In this document: in pieces, positions 6,604 to 28,887 of the stretch
Numbering within the stretch: position 1 is the stretch's first letter
How the letters are laid out: the number at the start of each line of letters is the position of its first letter
From: Pseudomonadota bacterium
Lineage (GTDB): Bacteria; Pseudomonadota; Gammaproteobacteria; Poriferisulfidales; GCA-002705445
Reading direction: 5' to 3'
Assembly (NCBI GenBank): GCA_036165695.1
Contig: JAYZIH010000019.1
Location: forward strand, 1-39,066
DNA: 39,066 nucleotides
Made by a program: the position numbers and the translations under genes
Notes under the pieces: generated by a model
Database searches by the model: none
Seen by the model: only the letters and a program-made list of their open reading frames with translations
Told to the model about the DNA's origin: nothing

Positions 6604-6605
6604 TT

Positions 6606-6845
6606 TTAGTTAGGTTTAAAACTAAAATTTCCTGTAAGTACCCAACGTAAAAGTATATATAGAGGAAAAATAACTAATGCTGCAAGAGCAATAGTTTTGT
6701 GATTATAATCGATATAGTTTGCTAAGATCCCAAAAAAAGAGCGACCTTTCATATATACATACACTATGTTTAAAGGATGTAGAAGAAAAAGTAATAATGT
6801 AATTGCGTATAGTAGTCTATTAATTTTTTGATAAAATCCGCTCAT
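6606..6845 (-). CDS. hypothetical small membrane protein
   Basis: 79 aa ORF with two hydrophobic stretches, downstream of the 2H phosphoesterase gene on the same strand. No recognisable family. Confidence 0.3.
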   Translation of the reverse strand: MSGFYQKINRLLYAITLLLFLLHPLNIVYVYMKGRSFFGILANYIDYNHKTIALAALVIFPLYILLRWVLTGNFSFKPN

Positions 6846-6857
6846 ATTTTTAATATA

Positions 6858-7355
6858 TTAAAATTTATGTTCATTTAATGTTTCATACCAAGGAAAGGCA
6901 CCCTTATGCTCTTCATTACTATGTAATTCTACAACACAAGCCTTCTCAAATTCAATTATCTCTGGAAACCCGCTTACTTCCTTACTTATTTCCCTCTTTT
7001 TTTGCAGAGAAGTTTTAATATAAAGTAAACTTAAATGAGGATTAAATATATACTCATCGTTTGGAAAGTTTTCCTTTGCAATATTATTAAGTGCACCAAG
7101 ATGGGAATTCATTGCTATATCAAGAAAAATACTTTTAAAATATGCTTCTGTAGAGCATACTCCTTTAATAATGACAGATAGTCCTGTTATATTTTTAAAT
7201 ATATTTCTAAGCTTTATGTCTTGCATCTTATCAAAAGTATGAAGTGTTACATGTGGAGTAAATTTAACTGCATCGTATCTCTTAACAAGACTATCTATAG
7301 TTGAACATAGAAACTTATTATCATCTTTAGGTATTAGCCATATTGCGTATTTCAT
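6858..7355 (-). CDS. 2H phosphoesterase superfamily protein (2'-5' RNA ligase/cyclic phosphodiesterase-like)
   Basis: Two H-x-T/S-x motifs at the expected spacing: FTPHVTLHT and FNPHLSLLY. 165 aa. Overlaps the upstream hydrolase gene by 4 nt. Confidence 0.6.
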   Translation of the reverse strand: MKYAIWLIPKDDNKFLCSTIDSLVKRYDAVKFTPHVTLHTFDKMQDIKLRNIFKNITGLSVIIKGVCSTEAYFKSIFLDIAMNSHLGALNNIAKENFPNDEYIFNPHLSLLYIKTSLQKKREISKEVSGFPEIIEFEKACVVELHSNEEHKGAFPWYETLNEHKF

Positions 7356-8234: not shown

Positions 8235-8672
8235 TTAAAAACCTGCTATCTCAAGTAGCTTCTTTGATTTTTCTATATCCTTCTCTACTAATTTTCCTTC
8301 TTCATAGATCATAGCAAGAGTAGTTAGTGAGCCTGCAAGTCCTTGCTCTGCAGCTTTTGTGAACCAATAAACCGCTTGCTCACCATTTTTTTCAACACAA
8401 TCACCTTCCATAAACATAAAACCTAAACCGTGTTGGGCTAGAGCATGACCATTCTCTGCAGCCTTTTTCATCCATTTGTATGCAAGAAGGGGGTTTTCTT
8501 TATTACCTAGACCATTCTGATACATTATTGCACATCTATGTTGTGCTTCAGTATTACCATCTTCTGCTAAAGGCGAAAGGAGCTGCATAGCTCTTGAAAA
8601 GTGTTTTGCCTCAAAAGCCTGTAAACCACTATTTAATTCAACATCTTTTTTTTTCACAATATTACTACCCAT
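8235..8672 (-). CDS. Sel1-repeat (TPR-like) protein
   Basis: 145 aa with three or four Sel1-type repeats (A..W..KAAE.G...AQ..LG.MY..G). Confidence 0.8.
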   Translation of the reverse strand: MGSNIVKKKDVELNSGLQAFEAKHFSRAMQLLSPLAEDGNTEAQHRCAIMYQNGLGNKENPLLAYKWMKKAAENGHALAQHGLGFMFMEGDCVEKNGEQAVYWFTKAAEQGLAGSLTTLAMIYEEGKLVEKDIEKSKKLLEIAGF

Positions 8673-8746
8673 TAGCTATATATATATTTAGACAAGTATA
8701 TGCATATAATATATCAATTGTAAATTTCTCATATGGGGGATTAATT

Positions 8747-9841
8747 TTGTCAAAGGACATATTGAGAAGCACTATTCAAAAAGTTGCAACTGGTCCCGAG
8801 TATAGTAAGGACATTGATGTCAAAGAAAGCTATGAAGCAATGCTAAACATACTCGATGAAAATGTTGACCCTGTTCAGGCAGCAATTTATTTAATTGCAT
8901 TACGCATGAAAAGAGAAACTTTGGATGAAAACACTGGATCACTTAAAGCTATTTTAGATAAATCTATTATTACAACTGTTGATGTTGATGAGATTGTTGA
9001 TTTAGCTGAACCTTATAATGGTTTTTCTAGAAATACTCCGGTATCACCTTTTTTACCAGCTATATTAGCATCGGTTGGATTGGCAACAGTAACTCATGGC
9101 GTAACGACTGTTGGACCTAAATTTGGATTAACTCATAGAAAAATACTAGAAAAACTTGGTGTTAACGTCAATAAGGACCCTAATGCAGTTAGTAAAGATC
9201 TTTGTACGCCTGAAATTTCTTGGGCATACATTGATCAAAGTAATTTCTGTAAATCTTTATATGGTTTGATTGATATGAGAACACGCATGGTCAAAAGAAC
9301 TGTAATTACAACTGTTGAAGTTTTAGTTGGCCCTATAAGAGGGAAAAACAAGACTCACTTAGTTACTGGGTACGTTCATCCAGCATACCCCCCAGTTTAT
9401 TTACATTTAGCAGATATATCAGGCTTTGATACAGCAACACTCATTAAAGGAGTTGAAGGTGGAATTACGCCTCCGTTAAGGCAAGATACAAAAGTATATA
9501 CATATAATAATGACAAAAAGCTAGAAATTGTCTTTAACCCAAAAGATATTGGAATAGAACAAAATGCTAGAGCCGTCCTATTACCAGAGCTTTCAAAAAA
9601 CTCTGCTTCGTTAGATGAAATATCTAGCGAAATTAATATTGAAGAATTTGCTGAAAAAGCTGCTTCAATAGGATATGAAGCATTAAATGGGAAAGATGGC
9701 ATCGCAAAAGACTCTCTAATTTATGCTAGTTCAATTATTTATAGCGTTGTTAGGTCAGTAAATTTTTCAGATTCGGCAAAGTTAATAAGAAAGTCGATAG
9801 ATAGCGGAAAAGCAAAAGAATTTTTTTCTAATGCGATATGA
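8747..9841 (+). CDS. TrpD2/YbiB-family protein (anthranilate phosphoribosyltransferase-like fold, probable nucleic-acid binding)
   Basis: Pattern similarity to E. coli YbiB as recalled: ALRMK.E, EPYNGFSRN compared with PSYNGARKQ, and VTHGV compared with VVHGV. The TrpD catalytic motifs GTGGD and KHGNR are absent. I moved the start to TTG 8747 (GGGGGA SD at 8735-8740) because the tracked ORF start at 8594 overlaps the opposite-strand Sel1 gene. Confidence 0.6.
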   Translation: MSKDILRSTIQKVATGPEYSKDIDVKESYEAMLNILDENVDPVQAAIYLIALRMKRETLDENTGSLKAILDKSIITTVDVDEIVDLAEPYNGFSRNTPVSPFLPAILASVGLATVTHGVTTVGPKFGLTHRKILEKLGVNVNKDPNAVSKDLCTPEISWAYIDQSNFCKSLYGLIDMRTRMVKRTVITTVEVLVGPIRGKNKTHLVTGYVHPAYPPVYLHLADISGFDTATLIKGVEGGITPPLRQDTKVYTYNNDKKLEIVFNPKDIGIEQNARAVLLPELSKNSASLDEISSEINIEEFAEKAASIGYEALNGKDGIAKDSLIYASSIIYSVVRSVNFSDSAKLIRKSIDSGKAKEFFSNAI

Positions 9842-9881
9842 TTTATAATCTAGATCAGTTTTTTTAAGTAAAGGGAGAAAA

Positions 9882-10076
9882 ATGGACGATATATATAGAG
9901 AAGCAACTACAAAAATGGAAGAGCTTGGTATTCAGGACGAATATATAATAGGATGGCAGGGAGGTTATTTAGGCCATCCTGAAAGAGAAGAAACAAGAGC
10001 CACTGATGCGTATGAAGCGGGTTACGAGGATGGAAAGAATAAAGACTTAAACAATCTTGATAAATGGAAAAAGTGA
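9882..10076 (+). CDS. hypothetical small acidic protein
   Basis: 64 aa ORF with SD-like AAGGGAG upstream. No recognisable family. Confidence 0.35.
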   Translation: MDDIYREATTKMEELGIQDEYIIGWQGGYLGHPEREETRATDAYEAGYEDGKNKDLNNLDKWKK

Positions 10077-10079
10077 TAT

Positions 10080-10634
10080 CTACTTTTTAACAAGCGACTT
10101 TATAGCTGTTTTTAAAGGTTGCATCATTTTTGGTACTTCTGAATCAATAACATACATTCGTATCCAGTTGTTATCTAGATTCCCCATAACATTCATCAAA
10201 TGATTTCCTAATATAATTTTTGTTTTATAGTTTGGTTCCATGTCATATGGAAACTCACTATATTCTTCTAACCTCTCGTTAAGCTTTTCAATGAAAGAAA
10301 TTCTTTCATCTACGTCCTTTATTTTTAGCTCTTGTTTATTAGAGGTAATCGTATCACTTATTTTTTTAGCAATATCAGTAATATAAGTAAGTTTTTTATC
10401 ATCTGGTAGATTGATAAGTTCATTACTAGCTACATAAATTAAAAAACATGAAACTTCTTCAAGCACATTAAATCTATCTTCCCAAGTACTTGTTTCAAAA
10501 CCCTCATTTTCTAGACTAAGCAAAGTTTTTTGAGATATTTTCCAGATATTTACAGCAACAGCACCAGCAATTTGATCTATTTGTCTAGTTTTATCTTTTT
10601 GATTCCAACCAGTATGTATTCTTTGTATACTCAT
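10080..10634 (-). CDS. hypothetical protein
   Basis: 184 aa ORF, predicted soluble and helical by eye. No motif I can assign. Convergent with the 64 aa ORF (3 nt apart). Confidence 0.5.
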   Translation of the reverse strand: MSIQRIHTGWNQKDKTRQIDQIAGAVAVNIWKISQKTLLSLENEGFETSTWEDRFNVLEEVSCFLIYVASNELINLPDDKKLTYITDIAKKISDTITSNKQELKIKDVDERISFIEKLNERLEEYSEFPYDMEPNYKTKIILGNHLMNVMGNLDNNWIRMYVIDSEVPKMMQPLKTAIKSLVKK

Positions 10635-10683
10635 TTTTATAATTACAGTTAAATAAATACAATATATTAGAATTTTTTTAAAT

Positions 10684-11256
10684 ATGAAAGAATTAAAATC
10701 AGATAGCTTTATCTATGAATTTCCTAATATTATATCAAAAGAGATATGTGAAGACATTATTAAGAGATTTGAAAAAGACAAAGTAAACCATTATCGAGGA
10801 AGAATTGGACAGAAACTTGATGAGGATTTAGATATAAAGAGATCAACAGATTTATTTATTAGTGGAAAAGATGAATGGAAGGATGTAGACCAGATATTTT
10901 TTGATGCTTTAAAGAAAGCTATGATAGAAATAAAAAATAAAATAGATTTTTTTAATGGTCCCTTTAAAGACATGGGATATGCTATACAGAGAACAGATAA
11001 AGAAGAATTTTATCACTGGCATATTGATGGAGGTAGCCATGAATTTAGTTATAGACAATTAGTTGCAATCTTTTATTTAAATACATTAAGTGATGAAGAT
11101 GGTGGTACAACGGAATTTTTTCATCAAAAGATTAATGTCAAACCCGAGGTCGGAAAATTAATTTTATTTCCACCATTTTGGACTCATAAGCATAGGGGAC
11201 GCAAAGTAGAATTGGGAAAAAAATATATTGCTACTACATGGATAGTATTTGCTTAA
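10684..11256 (+). CDS. 2OG-Fe(II) oxygenase, prolyl-4-hydroxylase-like
   Basis: 190 aa with the H-x-D iron motif HWHIDG and a distal His in WTHKHRG. GGTTEF and LILFP strands are typical of the P4H-type double-stranded beta-helix. Confidence 0.75.
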   Translation: MKELKSDSFIYEFPNIISKEICEDIIKRFEKDKVNHYRGRIGQKLDEDLDIKRSTDLFISGKDEWKDVDQIFFDALKKAMIEIKNKIDFFNGPFKDMGYAIQRTDKEEFYHWHIDGGSHEFSYRQLVAIFYLNTLSDEDGGTTEFFHQKINVKPEVGKLILFPPFWTHKHRGRKVELGKKYIATTWIVFA

Positions 11257-11257
11257 T

Positions 11258-11581
11258 TTATTCTAAGAATATAGTATCTTGCATATTACCAGCAGTATCT
11301 ATATCAATACTTTTAGTTTTTGGCAGATGATAAATTATATATGCTGCCATCATTATTGCTGTTTCTTTTCTTCCATTGTGGATAGAGGTAAATAATCTTT
11401 CAGCTGCAATTTGACATTTTTGTAATTGATTAGGTTTTTCAACCCAAATTTGCCCCATTTGCCATCCCTTCTCCATATCAACATCCATTTTCTTGAAAAA
11501 ATCTACACCTTCTTCAATAATTAGTGGCTTAATTTTAAGGGGATATGAATTATTACCTAGAATAATTTTTAATTCATACAT
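11258..11581 (-). CDS. hypothetical protein (last gene of the dsrA-divergent operon)
   Basis: 107 aa ORF, 6 nt downstream of the 65 aa ORF on the same strand. No recognisable family. Confidence 0.5.
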   Translation of the reverse strand: MYELKIILGNNSYPLKIKPLIIEEGVDFFKKMDVDMEKGWQMGQIWVEKPNQLQKCQIAAERLFTSIHNGRKETAIMMAAYIIYHLPKTKSIDIDTAGNMQDTIFLE

Positions 11582-11587
11582 TTAGAA

Positions 11588-11785
11588 TTATTTATTTGAT
11601 CCTTTTTCTTTATGGGCAAGATCAACCACTTCCATTGCAGTGTCCCTATATTCTTCTCTGAAATTCGACAGACTCGATCCTTCTTTTGGAGCAAAGTATT
11701 CCTCAGGCTCCACACCTACTCTATCTAATTCAATGAACTTCTTTTGCATCTCGAGAAGCTTTTTAATTTTTTCTTTTTTATCCAT
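11588..11785 (-). CDS. hypothetical small charged protein
   Basis: 65 aa ORF, lysine/glutamate rich, 55 nt downstream of the DsrC-like gene. No obvious SD. Confidence 0.4.
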   Translation of the reverse strand: MDKKEKIKKLLEMQKKFIELDRVGVEPEEYFAPKEGSSLSNFREEYRDTAMEVVDLAHKEKGSNK

Positions 11786-11840: not shown

Positions 11841-12179
11841 CTAGTATCCACCTTTTCTTCTACTTTCAGGTAATCCAGATATCCTTCCGCCTTGTTTGCT
11901 TGGGTCACCTGGGAAAAGATCATATAGTACTTTAGCATCAATCTTCTCTCCCCATAATTTCTCAAAGTATTTAACGAGTTTCCTAGTATTAGGTTGATTC
12001 CCTGCATTATTAAAAAACTCATCTCTGAGATGGTTGATAACATCCCAATGTTTTGATGTTAATTCTAAACCTTCAGAGCTAGCTATATGTTTAGCTAATC
12101 CTTCACTCCAGTCTTCAGCATTAACTAGATATCCCATTTGAGTAGTTTCAATTTCTTTTCCATCAAAATCAATTGCCAT
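11841..12179 (-). CDS. DsrC/TusE-family protein lacking both conserved C-terminal cysteines (RspA-like)
   Basis: The 112 aa protein aligns over its whole length with the bona fide DsrC at 17627-17959 (GYL.N..DW..GLA, HW.VIN.LR, LY.LFP, GLP). Its C-terminal arm reads KQGGRISGLPESRRKGGY where DsrC reads KQACKYAGLPKPTGCV. A strong SD, GAGGTG, lies 5 nt upstream of the ATG. Confidence 0.85.
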   Translation of the reverse strand: MAIDFDGKEIETTQMGYLVNAEDWSEGLAKHIASSEGLELTSKHWDVINHLRDEFFNNAGNQPNTRKLVKYFEKLWGEKIDAKVLYDLFPGDPSKQGGRISGLPESRRKGGY

Positions 12180-12187
12180 AATTCACC

Positions 12188-12871
12188 TCATTCATCCCTT
12201 TCTTTTGCAACTGCTACTGCCGCAATGCTTTTATAGGGTAAAAAGATACCACAACCAAATAATTTTCCAATACCTAATCCTATTTCCTGTAATTTAATTG
12301 AATCTTGTGGGGACATTTCAGTAATTAATAAGGTACATGTTTTATAGGTAGTTTTAGATGTTTTTACATTATATGATTTACCACACATCATTTTTTTTAC
12401 ATGGATACCTAACTTCTCAATATCACTTTTAACAGATTCTAAAAACTGATCTTCAGTTTTGCTTATATCCATAATTAGATATCTACAAAAAAGTGTATCT
12501 GATACAGTTAGTTTTTTAACATTTGGCTTGCTTAACTTAACAGAATATTTTCCAACTGGAAGAGTTTTATTATCCAATTCTTTTATAAGCTCGATATGTT
12601 TATTCAGTGACCTAATAGTTAATCTTGCCCTTTTTGATAAATAAATCTCATCCTTAGGTCTTTCCCAGCCAGCCCCAGATGAGGAGCCATGAATTGTATG
12701 TATGGCTAGATTATCAATTGATTCTATACTTGGAATAATTTCTTTAATTGATATGAATAAATCGTAAGCATGGTCAGCAGAAATTTTTTTACAATCAACA
12801 TGAAAGGCTATATCAATTGTATTAGATTCAATTTTGATATCTTCATCTTCCTCTGTTTCTTCCCAATACAT
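12188..12871 (-). CDS. Cas6/Cmx6-like RAMP-fold protein (orphan, no CRISPR context)
   Basis: The 227 aa sequence reads by eye as two beta-alpha-beta-beta-alpha-beta lobes. Near the C-terminus, GLGIGKLFGCG fits the Cas6 glycine-rich loop pattern GhGxxxxxGhG, including a basic residue. The N-terminal IDIAFHVDC..ISADHAYDL resembles Cmx6-type sequences as I recall them. Confidence 0.6.
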   Translation of the reverse strand: MYWEETEEDEDIKIESNTIDIAFHVDCKKISADHAYDLFISIKEIIPSIESIDNLAIHTIHGSSSGAGWERPKDEIYLSKRARLTIRSLNKHIELIKELDNKTLPVGKYSVKLSKPNVKKLTVSDTLFCRYLIMDISKTEDQFLESVKSDIEKLGIHVKKMMCGKSYNVKTSKTTYKTCTLLITEMSPQDSIKLQEIGLGIGKLFGCGIFLPYKSIAAVAVAKERDE

Positions 12872-12877
12872 AATAAT

Positions 12878-13063
12878 TTATGGTGACGTGAATAAGTTTT
12901 CTAAATCTGATTCATAATTATCCGGAGTATCATCAAAAGGAGGCTTTATATCAATTGATAAAAAAATTTCTCCGTCTTTAATTTTATCTTTTATAAACTT
13001 CTTAAGAGATTTATAGGAGTCGATCTTATGCTCTGCAATTAATATTTCACTAATTACTAGCAT
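12878..13063 (-). CDS. hypothetical small protein with acidic tail
   Basis: 61 aa ORF. Its start overlaps the TauD-like gene by 14 nt and its stop lies 6 nt upstream of the Cas6-like start. No recognisable family. Confidence 0.35.
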   Translation of the reverse strand: MLVISEILIAEHKIDSYKSLKKFIKDKIKDGEIFLSIDIKPPFDDTPDNYESDLENLFTSP

Positions 13064-13916
13064 TATTGAAAATTCTGTTTTTAAATCTTATTCTATACAA
13101 TAATCTTTCTTCATTGCTGTCAGAAAATGCTTCTCTTTTATGTAAAATATTATTTGCAATAAATCCTTCATTTTTGTTTAACAAGGTTTTTAATTTAAAT
13201 TGGTTATCATCTTCCAAAAATTCTTTAATAAATGTAGTTATTTGCTTAGTCATTTTATCATTTTTCCACATAATATTTCTTTCTCTCATTGTATAGCGCA
13301 AATGGATTTCATTTTGATTGTCAATTTTAAATACTGGCCCAACTACATCTTGACTATTTTCGACATTATCGTCTTTTGGTATCGTCATAACATCGTTTTC
13401 CATTAGAAAATTAATAAAGTTTGTATTTTTATCTCTTAATGCAATATATAGCATTTCATGATCTAGTACTATATTTTCTCCACCTTTAGTTGCTGGATTC
13501 ACACAATGTAATATAAAAGATTTTATAGAAAATAAATTATGATTATAGTAGCCATCTGTATGCCAATTTAACTCCTTGTTTGTATAAGGTATATATTTAC
13601 TAAATTTTCCTCCATCATCTTGATTTTTGATTTCAGATATACCTTGAGAGTCTGAGTTTGGGTTGTGAATAATATCTATTAAGTTTAGCTGGCTGCACAG
13701 CAAGAGGACATCTTCTTTCTTTACCTCATTTTCGTGACTATAAAAAACGTAATTGTACATTTGAGAGACGGTCTTTAACCTTACTAATTCCTTAGACTTT
13801 AGCGCTCCTATGTCATTGATTTTAATCTTAATTTCATTAGGATTTATTGGATAATACGAGAGTTTTTGCTTTTTCCATACCTCGTAATCAGAGTTATTTT
13901 CTAGATTGGCTAACAT
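13050..13916 (-). CDS. TauD/TfdA-family Fe(II)/2-oxoglutarate dioxygenase-like protein
   Basis: 288 aa with the H-x-D motif in NWHTDGYY, a GGEN segment, and a distal His in NNILHKRE followed by Arg residues. The length fits the family. Confidence 0.75.
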   Translation of the reverse strand: MLANLENNSDYEVWKKQKLSYYPINPNEIKIKINDIGALKSKELVRLKTVSQMYNYVFYSHENEVKKEDVLLLCSQLNLIDIIHNPNSDSQGISEIKNQDDGGKFSKYIPYTNKELNWHTDGYYNHNLFSIKSFILHCVNPATKGGENIVLDHEMLYIALRDKNTNFINFLMENDVMTIPKDDNVENSQDVVGPVFKIDNQNEIHLRYTMRERNIMWKNDKMTKQITTFIKEFLEDDNQFKLKTLLNKNEGFIANNILHKREAFSDSNEERLLYRIRFKNRIFNNASN

Positions 13917-13952
13917 TTGTTAGAATCTACTAATACTCCAGCAAGAAAGGGA

Positions 13953-13968
13953 TACCCCTTATGGGATA
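13953..13968. promoter_or_regulatory. 7-2-7 inverted repeat TACCCCT-TA-TGGGATA, candidate NarL/LuxR-family operator
   Basis: The left half fits the E. coli NarL heptamer TACYYMT exactly. The right half is its inverted copy at 5/7. It is a G+C-rich island inside the AT-rich 148 bp dsrA/TauD-like divergent intergenic region. Confidence 0.3.
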
Positions 13969-14011
13969 TGACCTTACACCCCAATAGAGCTGTGTTTAAT
14001 AGGCCTAATAA

Positions 14012-14064: not shown

Positions 14065-15333
14065 ATGGCAGAAAAACAAAAACATCCAACACCAATGCTT
14101 GATGAGCTTGAACACGGCCCATGGCCAAGCTTCATATCAGGCATTAAGAGACTCAGAGACAAACATAAGGATAAACGTGTGCAAGGGGTAGCAAACGACT
14201 TATTAGGACAACTTGAACACTCATATGAAACACGTAAAGGATATTGGAAAGGGGGAACAGTTAGTGTGTTTGGATATGGAAGTGGAATTATTCCAAGATT
14301 TTCAGAAGTAGGTTCATCATTCCCAGATTCTAAAGAATTTCACACACTTAGAGTACAACCGCCAGCAGGAAACTATTATACAACTGACATGTTAAGACAA
14401 CTTGGAGAGAGTTGGGAGAAGCATGGTTCAGGTTTATCAACATTTCATGGACAAACAGGCAACATAATGTTTATTGGAACTTCAACAGAAGGAACACAAC
14501 ATTTCTTTGATGAAATAAATGAATATGGTTGGGATTTAGGTGGAGCAGGACCATGTGTAAGAACTGGCATGTGTTGTGTGGGTGCTGCTAGATGTGAGCA
14601 GTCTAACTTAGATGAAATAAAGATTCATAGAACCTTGCTTAATAATTTTACTGATGATGTGCATAGACCAGCATTACCATATAAATTTAAATTCAAAGTT
14701 TCTGGGTGCCCAAATGATTGTGTTAACTCTATAGAAAGAGCAGATTTTTCAATTATTGGAACCTGGAAAGATGATATGCAAGTTAGTCAAGAAAAAGTTA
14801 AAGAGTTTGTAGAAAAAAAGGGAAGAAAGTATGTAATTGATAACGTAATTACAAGATGCCCAACTAATTGCTTATCTTTAGAAGACGATGATTCACTTAG
14901 TGTTGATAATAAAAACTGTGTGAGATGTATGCATTGTTTAAATGTTATGCCTGAAGCTTTAAGTCCAGGAAAAGATAAAGGCGCAACTATTTTAATGGGC
15001 GGAAAAAGAACTTTAAAAGTTGGAGACCTAATGGGTACTGTTATCGTCCCATTTATGAAGTTAGATAACGAAGAGGATTATGAAAAATTGGTAGAACTTG
15101 CTGAAGAAACTATAGATTTTTGGGCAGAAAATGGATTAGAACAGGAAAGATGTGGAGAGATGATTGAGCGTATTGGACTAGTAAATTTCTTAGAAGGTAT
15201 CGGTATGGAAGTTGATCCTACTATGGTTAATGACCCTACAACAAGCTCCTACATTAGAATGGACGGATGGGACGAGGAAGCTGAGAAGTGGTTTAAAGAA
15301 AGACTAAAACAGCCAGAAGCTGCAGCAAATTAA
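14065..15333 (+). CDS. dsrA: dissimilatory sulfite reductase alpha subunit (oxidative/reverse type)
   Basis: 422 aa with a siroheme/[4Fe-4S] Cys cluster (CVRTGMCCVGAARC) and a ferredoxin insert (CPNDC, CVRCMHC). dsrB and dsrEFH follow. Confidence 0.97.
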   Translation: MAEKQKHPTPMLDELEHGPWPSFISGIKRLRDKHKDKRVQGVANDLLGQLEHSYETRKGYWKGGTVSVFGYGSGIIPRFSEVGSSFPDSKEFHTLRVQPPAGNYYTTDMLRQLGESWEKHGSGLSTFHGQTGNIMFIGTSTEGTQHFFDEINEYGWDLGGAGPCVRTGMCCVGAARCEQSNLDEIKIHRTLLNNFTDDVHRPALPYKFKFKVSGCPNDCVNSIERADFSIIGTWKDDMQVSQEKVKEFVEKKGRKYVIDNVITRCPTNCLSLEDDDSLSVDNKNCVRCMHCLNVMPEALSPGKDKGATILMGGKRTLKVGDLMGTVIVPFMKLDNEEDYEKLVELAEETIDFWAENGLEQERCGEMIERIGLVNFLEGIGMEVDPTMVNDPTTSSYIRMDGWDEEAEKWFKERLKQPEAAAN

Positions 15334-15347
15334 TTTAGGAGCTATAA

Positions 15348-16433
15348 ATGGAAGAAAAAGCACAAGTAGAACATAGAAATCCAATTGAAACAGGATGTCC
15401 GGATGCTTTTCAATATATGCATCCACTAATGAGAAAAAATTATGGGAATTGGGCATATCATGAGGACCCACGTCCTGGTGTATTAAAGCATGTAGCTCAT
15501 AGTGGCGAGGCAATATGGACTGTCAGAGCAGGCACACAAAGAATACTTGATGTTTTTACACTTAATCTATTGTGTGATATTGGCGATAAATTTGCTGATG
15601 GTTATGTGCGTTTTACAATAAGAAGCAACATAGAATATATGGTTGACCAAGAGTCTAAAGTTGGTCCACTTATTGTTGAGCTAGAAAAAAATGGTTTTGT
15701 CGTAGGTGGAACTAAAAACTCAGTTGCAATGATTTCGCATACTCAAGGATGGTTGCATTGTGATATTCCAGGAACTGATGCATCAGGAGTTGTTAAAGCA
15801 ATGATGGATGAATTAATAGATGAGTTCAAAGGATGGAATATGCCTAATCGTGTGCATATGACAACCTCTTGCTGCCAGATTAATTGCGGTGGACAAGGAG
15901 ATATTGCTATAAATGTTCAACATACAAAACCCCCAAAGATAAATCATGAATTAGTATCTAATGTATGTGAAAGACCTTCTGTTGTTGCAAGATGCCCAGT
16001 TGCAGCTATAAGACCAGCTCAGGTAAATGGAAAACCTTCCCTTGAAGTAGATGAGAAAAAATGTATATGTTGTGGTGCATGTTATCCACCATGTCCACCT
16101 ATGCAAATTAATGATGCAGAACATACAAAACTATCGATTTGGGTCGGAGGAAACCACTCAAACGCAAGAGGAAAACCAACTTTCCAGAAACTAGTAGCGG
16201 CAGGAATCCCAAATAACCCACCAAGGTGGCCGGAAGCTACTTCAATAGTAAAAAAGATTCTAAGAGCATATAGAGATAATGCAAAGGATTGGGAGAGAAT
16301 TAATGACTGGATAGAGCGCATAGGATGGCCAAGATTTTTTGAATTAACTGGCTTACCTTTTACAAAATTTCATATTAATAATTGGAAAGGTGCAAGAAAT
16401 AGTCTAAACGCATCAACACATATAAGATTCTAA
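15348..16433 (+). CDS. dsrB: dissimilatory sulfite reductase beta subunit
   Basis: 361 aa with the TTSCCQINCGG Cys cluster and ferredoxin domain CICCGACYPPCP. SD AGGAG upstream. Confidence 0.97.
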   Translation: MEEKAQVEHRNPIETGCPDAFQYMHPLMRKNYGNWAYHEDPRPGVLKHVAHSGEAIWTVRAGTQRILDVFTLNLLCDIGDKFADGYVRFTIRSNIEYMVDQESKVGPLIVELEKNGFVVGGTKNSVAMISHTQGWLHCDIPGTDASGVVKAMMDELIDEFKGWNMPNRVHMTTSCCQINCGGQGDIAINVQHTKPPKINHELVSNVCERPSVVARCPVAAIRPAQVNGKPSLEVDEKKCICCGACYPPCPPMQINDAEHTKLSIWVGGNHSNARGKPTFQKLVAAGIPNNPPRWPEATSIVKKILRAYRDNAKDWERINDWIERIGWPRFFELTGLPFTKFHINNWKGARNSLNASTHIRF

Positions 16434-26020: not shown

Positions 26021-26318
26021 AGCATTATCAAAAATCATAGAACAAAAAAAACTAATGAAAAATGACTCTATGAAGCTTAGAGTCGCTGTTATGCGTAAAG
26101 ATGATAAATATCATTATGCTATGGGATTTGATGATAATGTAACCCAAGAAGATGAGATTGTTCCTACCGATGGAATTGATATAATTGTTTCATCAGTATC
26201 TAAACCTCTTGCAAATGGTATGACTATTGATTATGTTGAAATTGAAAAAGATAATTTCAATTTTATTTTTTTAAATCCAAATGACCCGTCTTATGTTGAA
26301 CCCAAAGAAAAAAAGTGA
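26001..26318 (+). CDS. dsrR: DsrR, IscA/HesB-like protein without Fe-S ligand cysteines
   Basis: 105 aa with the IscA-like pattern (I.ITD.A...I......LR..V...G..G..Y...FD) but no cysteine anywhere. GTG start overlaps dsrN by 20 nt. Confidence 0.7.
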   Translation: MIKITDKALSKIIEQKKLMKNDSMKLRVAVMRKDDKYHYAMGFDDNVTQEDEIVPTDGIDIIVSSVSKPLANGMTIDYVEIEKDNFNFIFLNPNDPSYVEPKEKK

Positions 26319-27195
26319 AGATTTTAATATTTTTCTAGAATTGTTAAGCACTTGGCTAACAAATATTATGGCTGGAGATTTGTCTGCGAGACTCAATTTA
26401 GATAAAGAGAGCCCATACTACTTAGTTTCTAATAATATAAATGCTGTTTCTGACATGCTTGAAAAACAAGTGAGTAAAAATAACGAGCAGATAGAGAGGT
26501 TCTCTAAATATAAAGAGGAGAAGAATATTGAAATAAATAAACTTGCAATTGTTGAAGAACGTATAAAATTTGCTTCAGAACTACATGATTCTTTAGCACA
26601 AACCCTTGCCACACTAAAATTACAAGTAAGGGTGTTAGATGAAAGTATGCATCAGTCAAATGAAAAAAATATGTGGTCAGAATTAGAGAAATTAGAAAAA
26701 AGCATAGAGAGAGCAAACACGGAGATAAGGAAACTTATTAAACATTTTAGATCTGGCTCATCAGAAGAAAATAATTTTTTCAATAGCATTAATAATGTAG
26801 TGAATGATTTTAAAAATGATTTTCCAAGTGCAAAGATATTTTACCAAAACAATATATCAGATATTAATATTAATAATGAGCAAGAACTAAATATAGTTAG
26901 GATAATCCAGGAAGCTTTGACTAATGTAAAAAAACATTCTAAAGCTAGCACTGTTAGACTTTTTCTTACATCAGAGAATGCAGACAAGTATTTAATAATT
27001 ATTGAAGATGATGGTATTGGTATAGCCAAATCATGTTTTATGGGTCATGATGAAGAGCCTTCTGATGACCACTTTGGTATAAATATTATGAGAGACAGGG
27101 CAAAGAAAATTGATGGTGATTTAAAAATAGAAAGTGAACCTGGAGAAGGAGTAAGAATAATTTTAAGATTCTCCAAGCAATTAGAAAATTCTTAA
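26281..27195 (+). CDS. sensor histidine kinase, HAMP-remnant + HisKA_3 + HATPase_c, no transmembrane or sensor domain
   Basis: H-box ELHDSLAQTL with His at about residue 102. N-box NVKKHS, G-box DDGIGI, and GEGVRI are present. A HAMP-like segment IMAGDLSARL...NNINAVSDML lies near the N-terminus. The tracked start overlaps dsrR by 38 nt; alternative starts are ATG 26293, TTG 26341 and ATG 26368. Confidence 0.8.
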   Translation: MTRLMLNPKKKSEDFNIFLELLSTWLTNIMAGDLSARLNLDKESPYYLVSNNINAVSDMLEKQVSKNNEQIERFSKYKEEKNIEINKLAIVEERIKFASELHDSLAQTLATLKLQVRVLDESMHQSNEKNMWSELEKLEKSIERANTEIRKLIKHFRSGSSEENNFFNSINNVVNDFKNDFPSAKIFYQNNISDININNEQELNIVRIIQEALTNVKKHSKASTVRLFLTSENADKYLIIIEDDGIGIAKSCFMGHDEEPSDDHFGINIMRDRAKKIDGDLKIESEPGEGVRIILRFSKQLENS

Positions 27196-27203
27196 AAATT
27201 AAC

Positions 27204-27863
27204 ATGGCATTAAAAGTTATTATAATTGATGATCACACACTTTTTAGAGATGGGCTTAAGACTCTTCTAGTTCGTCATAATATTGAGGTTATTGCATCTT
27301 ATAACAACGGTGCTGATGGAATAAAAGGTATTCAGGATAACTACCCAGACATAGTTCTACTTGACCTAAGAATGCCAGAATCTTCTGGTATAGATATCTT
27401 AAAAAAGATAAAAGCAAAATATAAGCATTTATTAGTTGTCATGTTAACTACTAGTGATGATGAAAAAGATTTAATAGAAGCTCTTAAAAATGGTGCTAGT
27501 GGTTATCTTTTAAAAGACATGGAGCCTGATGATTTAGTTGTTGCGCTAAAAGATATCAATAAAGGAGAAACAATTGTAGCTCCAAATTTAACACAGATAC
27601 TTGCAAAAGTTGTGAAAGGAGACGATAACTCTGAACAAGTCACTAGCCCAGTAGATGATCTTACTCCGCGTGAGAAAGAAATATTAGAGCTACTAGCTGA
27701 AGGGCAAAGTAATAAAATCATTGCTAAGAACCTAGGAATTTCCGATGGGACAGTAAAGTTACATGTAAAATCTATACTCAGAAAATTAGATATACATTCT
27801 CGGGTGGAAGCTGCAGTTATAGCTGTCGAACATGGTTTGAGGAGAAAAACTAACACGGAGTAA
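27204..27863 (+). CDS. NarL/FixJ-family response regulator (REC + LuxR-type HTH)
   Basis: Receiver domain (IIIDDH, phospho-acceptor in VLLDLRMP, conserved K in LLKD). The C-terminal GerE/LuxR HTH reads LTPREKEILELLAEGQSNKIIAKNLGISDGTVKLHVKSILRKL. Confidence 0.9.
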   Translation: MALKVIIIDDHTLFRDGLKTLLVRHNIEVIASYNNGADGIKGIQDNYPDIVLLDLRMPESSGIDILKKIKAKYKHLLVVMLTTSDDEKDLIEALKNGASGYLLKDMEPDDLVVALKDINKGETIVAPNLTQILAKVVKGDDNSEQVTSPVDDLTPREKEILELLAEGQSNKIIAKNLGISDGTVKLHVKSILRKLDIHSRVEAAVIAVEHGLRRKTNTE

Positions 27864-27871
27864 AAGAAAAT

Positions 27872-28042
27872 ATGCAAGGCTGGAAAAAAAATAGAGTTGG
27901 ATTAGGAGTTTTACTAGTGATTTCATCGCTTGTAGCTAACTATGATGATTTTTCAGAAGGACAGAAAGTGTCTTTAATTGCACTATTAGTTTTAGTTTAT
28001 TATCTATATGTAAAATTTCTAAATAATTATCCAAAGGCGTGA
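27872..28042 (+). CDS. hypothetical 56 aa two-helix membrane protein (below ORF-track cutoff)
   Basis: Hand translation gives MQGWKKNRVGLGVLLVISSLVANYDDFSEGQKVSLIALLVLVYYLYVKFLNNYPKA, with two hydrophobic segments. It fills the otherwise empty RR-rhodanese gap. No SD seen. Confidence 0.25.
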   Translation: MQGWKKNRVGLGVLLVISSLVANYDDFSEGQKVSLIALLVLVYYLYVKFLNNYPKA

Positions 28043-28044
28043 AG

Positions 28045-28887
28045 ATGTTTTCTCATATCATTTCTCCGGAAAATTTACTATGTAATTTAGACAAGGAGGA
28101 CTGGATAATATTTGATTGTAGATTTAACCTATTAAAAAAAAATGAGGGTGAAGACCTATATAAAGAGTCACATATTAAAAACTCATATTATATTGATCTA
28201 GAAAAAGATCTGTCTGACTGCAAAAAGAATGGAGGAAGACATCCTTTGCCAAATATTGAACAATTTAAAGAAGTTTTAAATAGATATGGTATAGATAAGA
28301 GAACACAAATTGTTCTTTATGATGATAACAAGGGAGCCATTTGTTCAAGATTTTGGTGGATGTTAAAAAATGTTGGGCATGTAAATGCATGTGTCTTAGA
28401 TGGTGGTTATACCGCATGGAAAGATTTAACCTATCCGTTAACTAACAATCTCTCTCCTAGAAGAAAATCAACGAATAACTCATACTCATACAATAATGAA
28501 GAAATATATACAACAGAAGAAATAAAAAGATTGTTAGACGAAGATAAGATAATTCTCGTAGACGCAAGAGAGGAAAATAGATATTTGGGCAAAGAGGAAA
28601 AGATTGATAAAAAATCTGGACATATACCTGGATCAATAAATTTACCCTATGCAACTAATATAAATGAAAAAGGTTTTTTTAAAAATAATGATGAGCTTAT
28701 TAAAAAATTTGAAATTTTACTAAACGATAACTCTAAGGAAATTGTTCATATGTGTGGGTCTGGAGTAACAGCGTGTCATAATTTACTTGCAGCTGACCTT
28801 ACACAAAAATTTGGCTTACAAAAACTATATATAGGCTCGTGGAGCGCATGGATAGAAGACGAAAATAATAAAATAGGATTAGGATGA
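28045..28887 (+). CDS. tandem-rhodanese sulfurtransferase (3-mercaptopyruvate/thiosulfate sulfurtransferase, SseA-like)
   Basis: Two rhodanese domains, with the active-site loop CGSGVTAC in the second. I prefer ATG 28045 (AAGG 7 nt upstream) over the tracked GTG at 28039. Confidence 0.85.
   Translation: MFSHIISPENLLCNLDKEDWIIFDCRFNLLKKNEGEDLYKESHIKNSYYIDLEKDLSDCKKNGGRHPLPNIEQFKEVLNRYGIDKRTQIVLYDDNKGAICSRFWWMLKNVGHVNACVLDGGYTAWKDLTYPLTNNLSPRRKSTNNSYSYNNEEIYTTEEIKRLLDEDKIILVDAREENRYLGKEEKIDKKSGHIPGSINLPYATNINEKGFFKNNDELIKKFEILLNDNSKEIVHMCGSGVTACHNLLAADLTQKFGLQKLYIGSWSAWIEDENNKIGLG

Follow-up and report, generated by a model that had tools for sequence, protein, structure and literature searches.

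A CRISPR-independent clade of Cas6-like proteins encoded beside dsrAB in gammaproteobacterial sulfur oxidisers

The window analysed here, contig JAYZIH010000019.1 of assembly GCA_036165695.1 (39,066 nucleotides), comes from a gammaproteobacterium of the Poriferisulfidales and encodes on its minus strand (12188..12871) a protein of 227 amino acids that belongs to a CRISPR-independent clade of the Cas6/Cmx6 family. In its sequence, its fold and its motifs, this Cas6-like protein is a genuine Cas6-fold RAMP protein. Nor is it an isolated case: the clade is large and inherited vertically, its genes are kept in synteny with dsrAB, and a small partner gene is a fixed companion. Our tentative reading, to which we give a little less than an even chance, is that the protein has been domesticated outside CRISPR and serves as an RNA-binding or RNA-processing regulator working with the product of the small partner gene, here called p61.

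A Cas6 fold without CRISPR partners

The assignment to the Cas6 family is consistent across profile collections. The Pfam model PF09559 ('Cas6') matched residues 19-214 with an E-value of 1.4e-50 and a score of 172.4 bits (cutoff 26.7), the NCBIfam equivalog model TIGR02807 (cas6_cmx6) scored 105.6 bits (cutoff 98.85) and the Cas6 models of PADLOC matched with an E-value of 1e-52. The sole significant sequence match in the PDB was 8fcj_B (E-value 1e-13), a Cas6 that belongs to a type I-B CRISPR-associated transposon (CAST). We also modelled the structure with AlphaFold2 from an input of 31 homologues (predicted local distance difference test score, pLDDT, 88; predicted template modelling score, pTM, 0.83). 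The model contains two beta-alpha-beta-beta-alpha-beta lobes of the RRM, ferredoxin-like type. A Foldseek search of the PDB with this model retrieved 41 chains at E <= 7e-4, every one of which was Cas6 or Cas6e, and the best matches were 8fcu_B and 8fcj_B with TM scores of 0.78-0.83 and a root-mean-square deviation of about 2 A.

A first-pass annotation of the window, made from the sequence alone, had recognised the G-rich loop GLGIGKLFGCG as the Cas6 hallmark GhGxxxxxGhG with a basic residue in the loop, and had placed it between a helix and the final strand of the second lobe. Both observations were borne out. The loop occupies residues 198-208 (12248..12280, minus strand), contains K203 and, in the second lobe of the AlphaFold2 model, follows helix 188-197 and precedes strand 210-212. 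The structural comparison that the annotation had proposed yielded a Cas6 fold, and a fold unrelated to RAMP proteins was not found. Because the Pfam, NCBIfam, PDB sequence and Foldseek matches are all to Cas6, the loop is not a chance motif.

Neither Tandem Repeats Finder nor a scan for arrays with 18-mers detected a repeat array in the window, and there were no Rfam hits or tRNAs in it. Using the proteins of cas-linked relatives as tblastn queries (Cas3, Cas8b/DevT, Cas7, Cas5, Cas4-Cas1 and Cas2), we found no homologue in the window. The same queries returned nothing in 84 CRISPR-free loci (L001-L004 and L007-L086 in our numbering of loci), whose flanks were covered for up to 10 kb, and the 18-mer scan found no CRISPR array within 10 kb in these loci; the sole repeat match, in L056, was rejected as a perfect 55-bp tandem repeat without spacers. 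The earlier statement that the gene has no CRISPR or cas partners thus holds for the window and extends to the flanks of 84 related loci. It had further been stated that all intergenic gaps are shorter than 200 bp and that none is repetitive. When open reading frames (ORFs) of at least 90 amino acids were taken, one gap measured 254 bp (6604-6857), so that the size limit has to be relaxed, and this gap is likewise non-repetitive. The functional definition of a CRISPR-associated Cas6 asks for cas genes and/or an array alongside, and neither was seen in the window or the flanks; for this reason, the database name 'type I-MYXAN CRISPR-associated protein Cas6/Cmx6' given to members of the clade is very probably wrong as a description of function.

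To place the protein within its family, we collected 95 relatives from a search of 5.8 billion proteins. Relatives with at most 32% identity (bit scores <=80) are located in complete type I cas operons (L005, L006, L087 and L089-L091), which comprise genes for Cas3, Cas8b or DevT, Cas7, Cas5, Cas4-Cas1 and Cas2. Arrays with the 36-nt repeat GTGCTCAACGCCTTACGGCATCAATGGTTTCGGCAC or a close variant of it are present at L087 and L089-L091, and no array was found within the 8 kb examined at L005 and L006. In the L005 locus, whose cas operon is complete, the repeat-core pattern AACGCC-N4-GGCAT occurs twice, and these copies may represent ectopic or solitary repeats. Relatives with at least 33% identity (bit scores >=112) were never found in cas operons, and the search score falls from 112 to 80 bits between the CRISPR-free and the CRISPR-linked relatives.

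The alignment of these proteins places a clade-specific inserted loop, S65-G-A-G68-W69-E-R71-P72 in the window protein (12656..12679, minus strand), in the CRISPR-free sequences, and this insertion is absent in the CRISPR-linked relatives. The loop, at window residues 65-72, has the consensus S-x-x-G-W-x-R-P within the clade, whose members also share an acidic N-terminal extension starting with M-x-W-E-E-D, in which W3 is invariant.

Distribution and genomic neighbourhood of the clade

Clade-specific peptide patterns, searched in one genome per GTDB species, gave matches in at least 583 species. The best 80 of these matches were all from Gammaproteobacteria known as or named for sulfur oxidisers, including SUP05-like metagenome-assembled genomes, Thioalkalivibrio denitrificans, Chromatium weissei, Halochromatium, Thiocapsa, Thiomargarita, Parabeggiatoa, Sulfuricaulis, Thiohalomonas and sponge symbionts. 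An exhaustive search of 1.84 billion cluster representatives (50% identity) with a profile hidden Markov model (HMM) returned 1473 clusters at E <= 1e-3, of which 245 reached E <= 1e-30. Among these HMM matches, the best 150 were single-domain proteins without fusions, nearly all of about 210-240 amino acids. Two apparent fusions, P0002 (MlaA and Cas6) and P0037 (a read-through into a DsrC-like ORF), were judged to be gene-calling or frameshift artefacts. Comparisons of SUP05-like orthologues yielded dN/dS values of 0.09-0.16 for the Cas6-like gene; it is under purifying selection and therefore functional. A population-level dN/dS estimate against the near-identical contigs L092-L095 was precluded by too few differences.

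Synteny was assessed by tblastn of the window neighbours against 86 loci, and the gene lists of L001-L004 and L092-L095 agree with the gene order obtained in this way. The partner gene p61 (12878..13063, minus strand) encodes an acidic three-helix protein of 61 amino acids and lies upstream of the Cas6-like gene in 77 of the 86 loci, with one additional gene of ~236 amino acids inserted in about 23 of these. The p61 family has about 954 relatives of 51-79 amino acids. Across the class, the p61 proteins (59-65 amino acids) are 40-90% identical, a conservation above that of the Cas6-like protein itself. No Pfam match was found for p61, and no PDB match was obtained by structure, using an AlphaFold2 model with a pLDDT of 91, or by profile. 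NCBI labels the protein 'sulfur relay protein DsrC', a name without support from Pfam, NCBIfam or the fold. The Pfam model for DsrC and the NCBIfam models all failed to match p61, and this label looks like a propagated misannotation.

The inserted gene of ~236 amino acids (L003 7288-7998; also, for example, L064, L067, L081 and L086) occurs in Chromatiaceae and others, and probably corresponds to Alvin_1249 of Allochromatium vinosum. We considered it as a second RAMP protein and rejected this, with an hhalign probability of 0.2% and no Pfam match. In Beggiatoaceae and in some symbionts of sponges (L025, L027), the only neighbours of p61 and the Cas6-like gene are housekeeping genes, and because of these loci we take the pair to be the minimal unit. 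A 320-bp gap between the two genes at L025 (9668-9991) was inspected and set aside as an insertion with a duplicated 3' end of p61 and no conserved element. The insertion has long terminal inverted repeats and a fold z-score of -4.6, and looks like a miniature inverted-repeat transposable element (MITE).

Upstream of p61, the first gene of the operon (13050..13916, minus strand) encodes a TauD/TfdA-family Fe(II)/2-oxoglutarate dioxygenase (PF02668, E 3e-14), and such a TauD-like gene is located upstream of the Cas6-like gene in 66 loci. Downstream, in 69 loci, follows a cysteine-less, RspA-type paralogue of the DsrC/TusE family (11841..12179, minus strand; PF04358, E 3e-30). This paralogue lacks both redox cysteines of DsrC and exceeds DsrC by two residues in its C-terminal arm. 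All 68 full-length orthologues (68/68) end in RKGGY, whereas true DsrC ends in PTGCV. The invariant Gly-Gly-Tyr end might plug the DsrAB channel or serve it as a decoy, or it might be modified by the neighbouring dioxygenases. No description of the RKGGY end and of the fixed position after the Cas6-like gene was found in the literature searched.

Further downstream lies an accessory set of genes (8235..11785) that recurs in many loci. It consists of p65 (11588-11785, minus strand), p107 (11258-11581, minus), a 2OG-Fe(II) oxygenase (10684-11256, plus), p184 (10080-10634, minus), p64 (9882-10076, plus), a Glycos_transf_3-like (TrpD-like) protein (8594-9841, plus) and the Sel1-repeat protein p145 (8235-8672, minus). 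The oxygenase, the TrpD-like protein and p145 were identified by Pfam; p65, p107, p184 and p64 had no Pfam matches. The order of these genes is kept even at L004 (8791-14712), where there are no dsr genes nearby, and the set includes one or two 2OG-Fe(II) oxygenases. This suggests that the accessory genes belong to a larger functional module.

The dsrA and dsrB genes (14065..16433, plus strand) are divergent from the operon that contains the Cas6-like gene. Their orthologues, which carry NIR_SIR Pfam domains at L001-L003, were detected by tblastn at 66-95% identity in 60 or more loci, and are divergent and upstream of the Cas6-like gene in most. About 5 kb from the Cas6-like gene, the window also contains a gene for a 165-residue protein with a cyclic phosphodiesterase domain of the 2H-family (CPDase; 6858-7355, minus strand). 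Its proximity is of interest because Cas6 cleavage leaves 2',3'-cyclic phosphate ends.

Candidate functions and the dsrA leader

The residues expected of an RNA-binding Cas6 are largely in place. Four histidines, H24, H34, H58 and H61, had been put forward as catalytic candidates in the first-pass annotation. H34 (codon 12770..12772, minus strand) remains a candidate: it lies at the N-terminus of helix alpha-1, which we take to be the position of the catalytic histidine in Cas6e/Cas6f-type enzymes, and it is invariant in a mixed alignment of CRISPR-free and CRISPR-linked sequences (31/31) and in the orthologues (83/83). H58 and H61 are kept only in the CRISPR-free clade, and H24 drops out with mostly K or R at its position. 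Also present in 83/83 orthologues are R81, R87, Q195, G198, G206, G208 and F210, followed by R130 (82/83) and G200 (81/83), and K160 and K214 are nearly invariant. Position 203 in the G-rich loop is R or K in 71/83 orthologues. From these patterns of conservation we infer that the ability to bind an anionic polymer, most simply an RNA stem-loop, has been retained, and that cleavage has probably been kept in most lineages.

If the protein is a regulator acting with p61, the G-rich loop and the invariant arginines would allow it to recognise one specific RNA stem-loop, and His34 would cleave that RNA in most lineages. The clade-specific GW loop and p61 might then provide a new specificity or a means of control. 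The substrate would be a cellular RNA tied to sulfur oxidation rather than a CRISPR RNA (crRNA), and the action would be post-transcriptional.

A number of observations weigh against such a role. The most conserved residues of the protein are in the clade-specific loop (G68 in 148/148 and W69 in 147/148 representatives), ahead of R81 and R87. The median isoelectric point (pI) is about 6.1 in the CRISPR-free clade versus 7.7-10 in the CRISPR-linked relatives, and the G-rich loop has fewer basic residues in the clade than in those relatives. In the wider set of representatives, the H34 position is His in 133/148 and Tyr in 10 (about 7%), and in 8fcj_B it is Asn, with a His at the H58 position. 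No family of repeated hairpins was found in the window, which contains 10 distinct perfect G+C-containing hairpins; there were no Rfam hits in the window or in seven loci, and no sequence in the CRISPR-free loci resembled the CRISPR-repeat patterns of the relatives. Lastly, the one conserved palindrome, which lies near dsrA, is more readily explained as a DNA operator, as set out below.

These observations bear on the alternative that survives best, namely that the RAMP fold has been exapted for a role without RNA, as a protein-binding or small-ligand-binding subunit in which the catalytic site is reused or vestigial. Candidate partners would be, for example, p61, the RKGGY DsrC paralogue and the dioxygenases. 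We regard this explanation as possible though unlikely. It would account for the near-neutral or acidic pI and the acidic N-terminus with its invariant W3, for the loss of basic residues from the G-rich loop and of the Lys in the 'VVIKGF' strand, which is present in CRISPR-linked relatives and absent in the clade, for a clade-specific GNGW loop that is the best conserved part of the protein, and for the replacement of H34 by Tyr, Asn, Cys or Ala in 14/148 representatives. The fixed neighbours are moreover all proteins, and no RNA element travels with the pair at the dsr-less loci L025 and L027. However, H34 is retained in all 83 species loci, and R81, R87, R130, K160, K214 and the glycines of the G-rich loop are kept as for binding of a phosphate backbone. 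The first-pass annotation had offered both a protein acting on a non-CRISPR RNA and an exapted scaffold, and both remain: the retained H34, R81, R87, R130 and G-rich loop favour RNA, and the neutral pI, the fewer basic residues in the loop and the change of H34 to Tyr favour a changed function.

As RNA targets, the long polycistronic dsr transcript and the divergent leader had been suggested. The data favour neither of them. In the window, the dsr genes are separated by junctions of 14-44 bp, which share no hairpin. The sole conserved palindrome of the leader fits a NarL-type 7-2-7 operator in DNA, and its position follows the start of dsrA and not the Cas6-like operon. We also folded the spacers between the Cas6-like and the DsrC-like genes from 60 or more loci, and found no common structure and only promoter-like TAnnAT elements.

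The palindrome TACCCCTTATGGGATA (13953..13968, unstranded) is located in the spacer between dsrA and the TauD-like gene and is a probable NarL-type 7-2-7 operator. Its consensus, TATCCC-N4-GGG(A/G)TA, is the sole strongly conserved non-coding element. In 1.46 Mb of scanned sequence, 27 of the 37 strict matches fell within dsrA / TauD-like spacers, where roughly 0.1 would be expected by chance (about 22 kb of such spacers in total). The loci with the palindrome include L001, L014, L023, L030-L033, L043, L047, L073 and L086. It is almost identical to the high-affinity NarL 7-2-7 site of Escherichia coli, TACCCCTAAAGGGGTA (PMC4549865). In most lineages about 190-250 nt separate the palindrome from the dsrA start, and in SUP05-like loci about 95-116 nt; its spacing from the start of the TauD-like gene can be anything from 53 to 356 nt. 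The palindrome is preceded by another, related inverted repeat (CACCCTAC..GGGGTG), the window span being 13947-13985. Some other loci have copies of the palindrome upstream of p65 and in the spacer that separates the divergent genes p64 and p145 (Sel1-repeat protein), and it is absent from the dsr-less loci with p61 and the Cas6-like gene.

Candidates for the cognate regulator are encoded in the same cluster. A HisKA_3 histidine kinase (26281-27195, plus strand) directly follows dsrN/dsrR and is succeeded by a NarL/GerE-type response regulator (27204-27863, plus strand), both identified by Pfam, and the two together are the candidate regulator acting at the palindrome. A rhodanese gene (28039-28887) comes after this pair. 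Orthologous kinase/regulator pairs adjoin the Cas6-like module at L023 (Thioalkalivibrio denitrificans), L058 and L080. Given the match to the NarL site, the tracking of the dsrA start and the NarL-type regulator encoded here, we regard the palindrome as a putative DNA operator through which a two-component system would control a regulon spanning the dsr genes and the accessory operon. This points to an undescribed NarL-type regulon over dsr and accessory genes.

The converse proposal is that the palindrome is transcribed in the leader and forms the hairpin substrate of the Cas6-like protein, for self-regulation or for action on the dsr leader. Its stem of 6 bp, rich in G+C, and its 4-nt loop are like those of Cas6 substrates, and the element is conserved across distant loci. 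On the TauD-sense strand it was flagged as terminator-like, and the asymmetries are more often compatible with G-U pairs on that strand (6 versus 2), a bias that is not significant. Against this stand the nearly base-for-base match to the NarL 7-2-7 site together with the kinase and NarL-type regulator in the cluster, the nearly constant distance to dsrA compared with the variable one to the TauD-like gene, the copies in other divergent promoters of the module, and the lack of the element where p61 and the Cas6-like gene occur without dsr. We hold this proposal to be improbable.

Still less credit is due to the idea that p61 and the Cas6-like gene are a toxin-antitoxin or defence pair composed of a small acidic antitoxin and an RNase toxin. 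The order and the sizes of the genes do resemble type II toxin-antitoxin systems, and the pair can stand alone (L025, L027). However, the genes are inherited vertically, in synteny with a core metabolic operon, across the class and under strong purifying selection, the neighbours gave no PADLOC defence match except to generic 2OG and Cas6 models, and there are no signs of the mobile, patchily distributed two-gene module that typifies type II systems. Least credible of all is an ordinary crRNA-processing Cas6 that acts in trans for a CRISPR-cas locus at another genomic site: the protein does pass the TIGR02807 equivalog cutoff, clade members are named Cas6/Cmx6 in databases, and some type III systems use a Cas6 supplied in trans (PMC12669027), but the position next to p61 and dsrAB is fixed in 80 or more species whereas CRISPR-cas is patchy, no cas gene or array is found in these loci (window and flanks), the inserted loop and the drop from 112 to 80 bits separate the clade from CRISPR-linked relatives, and the only listed cas operon of A. 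vinosum is of type I-E with its own Cse3.

The A. vinosum genome provides an entry to experiments. Its Cas6-like gene is Alvin_1248, and Alvin_1249 and Alvin_1250 follow next to dsrA (Alvin_1251); the type I-E cas operon (Alvin_0646-0651) is separate. Judged by how the genes are ordered in related Chromatiaceae, Alvin_1250 should be the orthologue of p61. Table S2 of PMC11267869 re-tabulates the microarray data of Weissgerber 2013, a comparison described there as cells grown on elemental sulfur versus sulfide control cells. In this table, which is a second-hand source with spreadsheet errors so that its figures call for caution, Alvin_1248, 1249 and 1250 have values of 12.5-, 6.3- and 17.7-fold, opposite to the 0.09-0.25-fold of dsrA through dsrP. 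This suggests that Alvin_1248-1250 form one sulfur-responsive unit that is regulated differently from dsr. No discussion of Alvin_1248-1250 or of a dsr-linked Cas6 was found in the literature searched, and the supplements on the Riftia symbiont proteome had no Cas6 entry.

A more specific version of the regulatory role, which we consider doubtful, is that a Cas6 was captured from a type I CRISPR system and, with its partner of 60 amino acids, may now be a sequence-specific, RNA-processing or RNA-binding regulator of dissimilatory sulfur oxidation that controls the dsr operon or the accessory regulon post-transcriptionally. If true, this would concern most gammaproteobacterial sulfur oxidisers, including SUP05 and the giant and purple sulfur bacteria, and the protein would become the first Cas6 to serve energy metabolism as a housekeeping factor. 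Cas6 is generally treated as a CRISPR-only protein, and here is a clade that is large, old and under selection, and whose genes have a fixed place next to the key enzyme of sulfur oxidation. The bacteria concerned are ecologically dominant: SUP05, Beggiatoaceae, Chromatiaceae, Ectothiorhodospiraceae, and the symbionts of sponges and vents. Should the protein bind RNA, it would be a natural Cas6 repurposed for host gene regulation and an unrecognised layer of dsr control; should it not, it would be an example of what the RAMP fold can become. In either case the NCBIfam equivalog naming inflates the CRISPR counts in sulfur-oxidiser genomes. With Alvin_1248 in the genetically tractable A. vinosum, the question is directly testable.

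Comparison with known systems

The closest known proteins are the Cas6/Cmx6 proteins of type I-B / I-MYXAN systems (8FCJ/8FCU chain B). They are like the Cas6-like protein in family profile, double-RRM fold and length, and have in common with it the G-rich loop with GCG-I/L-F as well as R87, R130, S191 and Q195; H34 is also found in the CRISPR-linked Cas6/Cmx6 sequences sampled. In contrast to them, the Cas6-like protein has no cas operon or array, it carries the SxxGWxRP insert and the acidic N-terminal extension with its invariant Trp, its pI is about 6 rather than 8-10 and its G-rich loop is less basic. It also differs in its fixed partner gene of 60 amino acids and in its genomic linkage to dsrAB.

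A likeness of another kind exists to DsrR and DsrS, which work by Grimm et al. in 2010/2011 is said to have implicated in the post-transcriptional control of dsr in A. vinosum. Like the Cas6-like protein, these are small accessory proteins whose genes accompany dsr, and they have been proposed to act post-transcriptionally. Their folds are unrelated to that of the Cas6-like protein, and their genes are part of the dsr operon itself and not of the divergent one.

In the 2025 classification of CRISPR-Cas systems, hits to Cas profiles outside cas islands are treated as false positives (PMC12669027), and the CRISPR-free Cas6 clade is mentioned neither there nor in a review of exaptation (PMC8730458). 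Among the systems described in that review, the Streptomyces module of Cas5-6-7-8 with a STAND protein and the haloarchaeal HRAMP likewise contain Cas-family RAMP proteins without an adaptation module or an array. Both are multi-Cas effector modules with a predicted role in defence, whereas the Cas6-like protein is a single Cas6 with non-Cas partners at a locus of energy metabolism.

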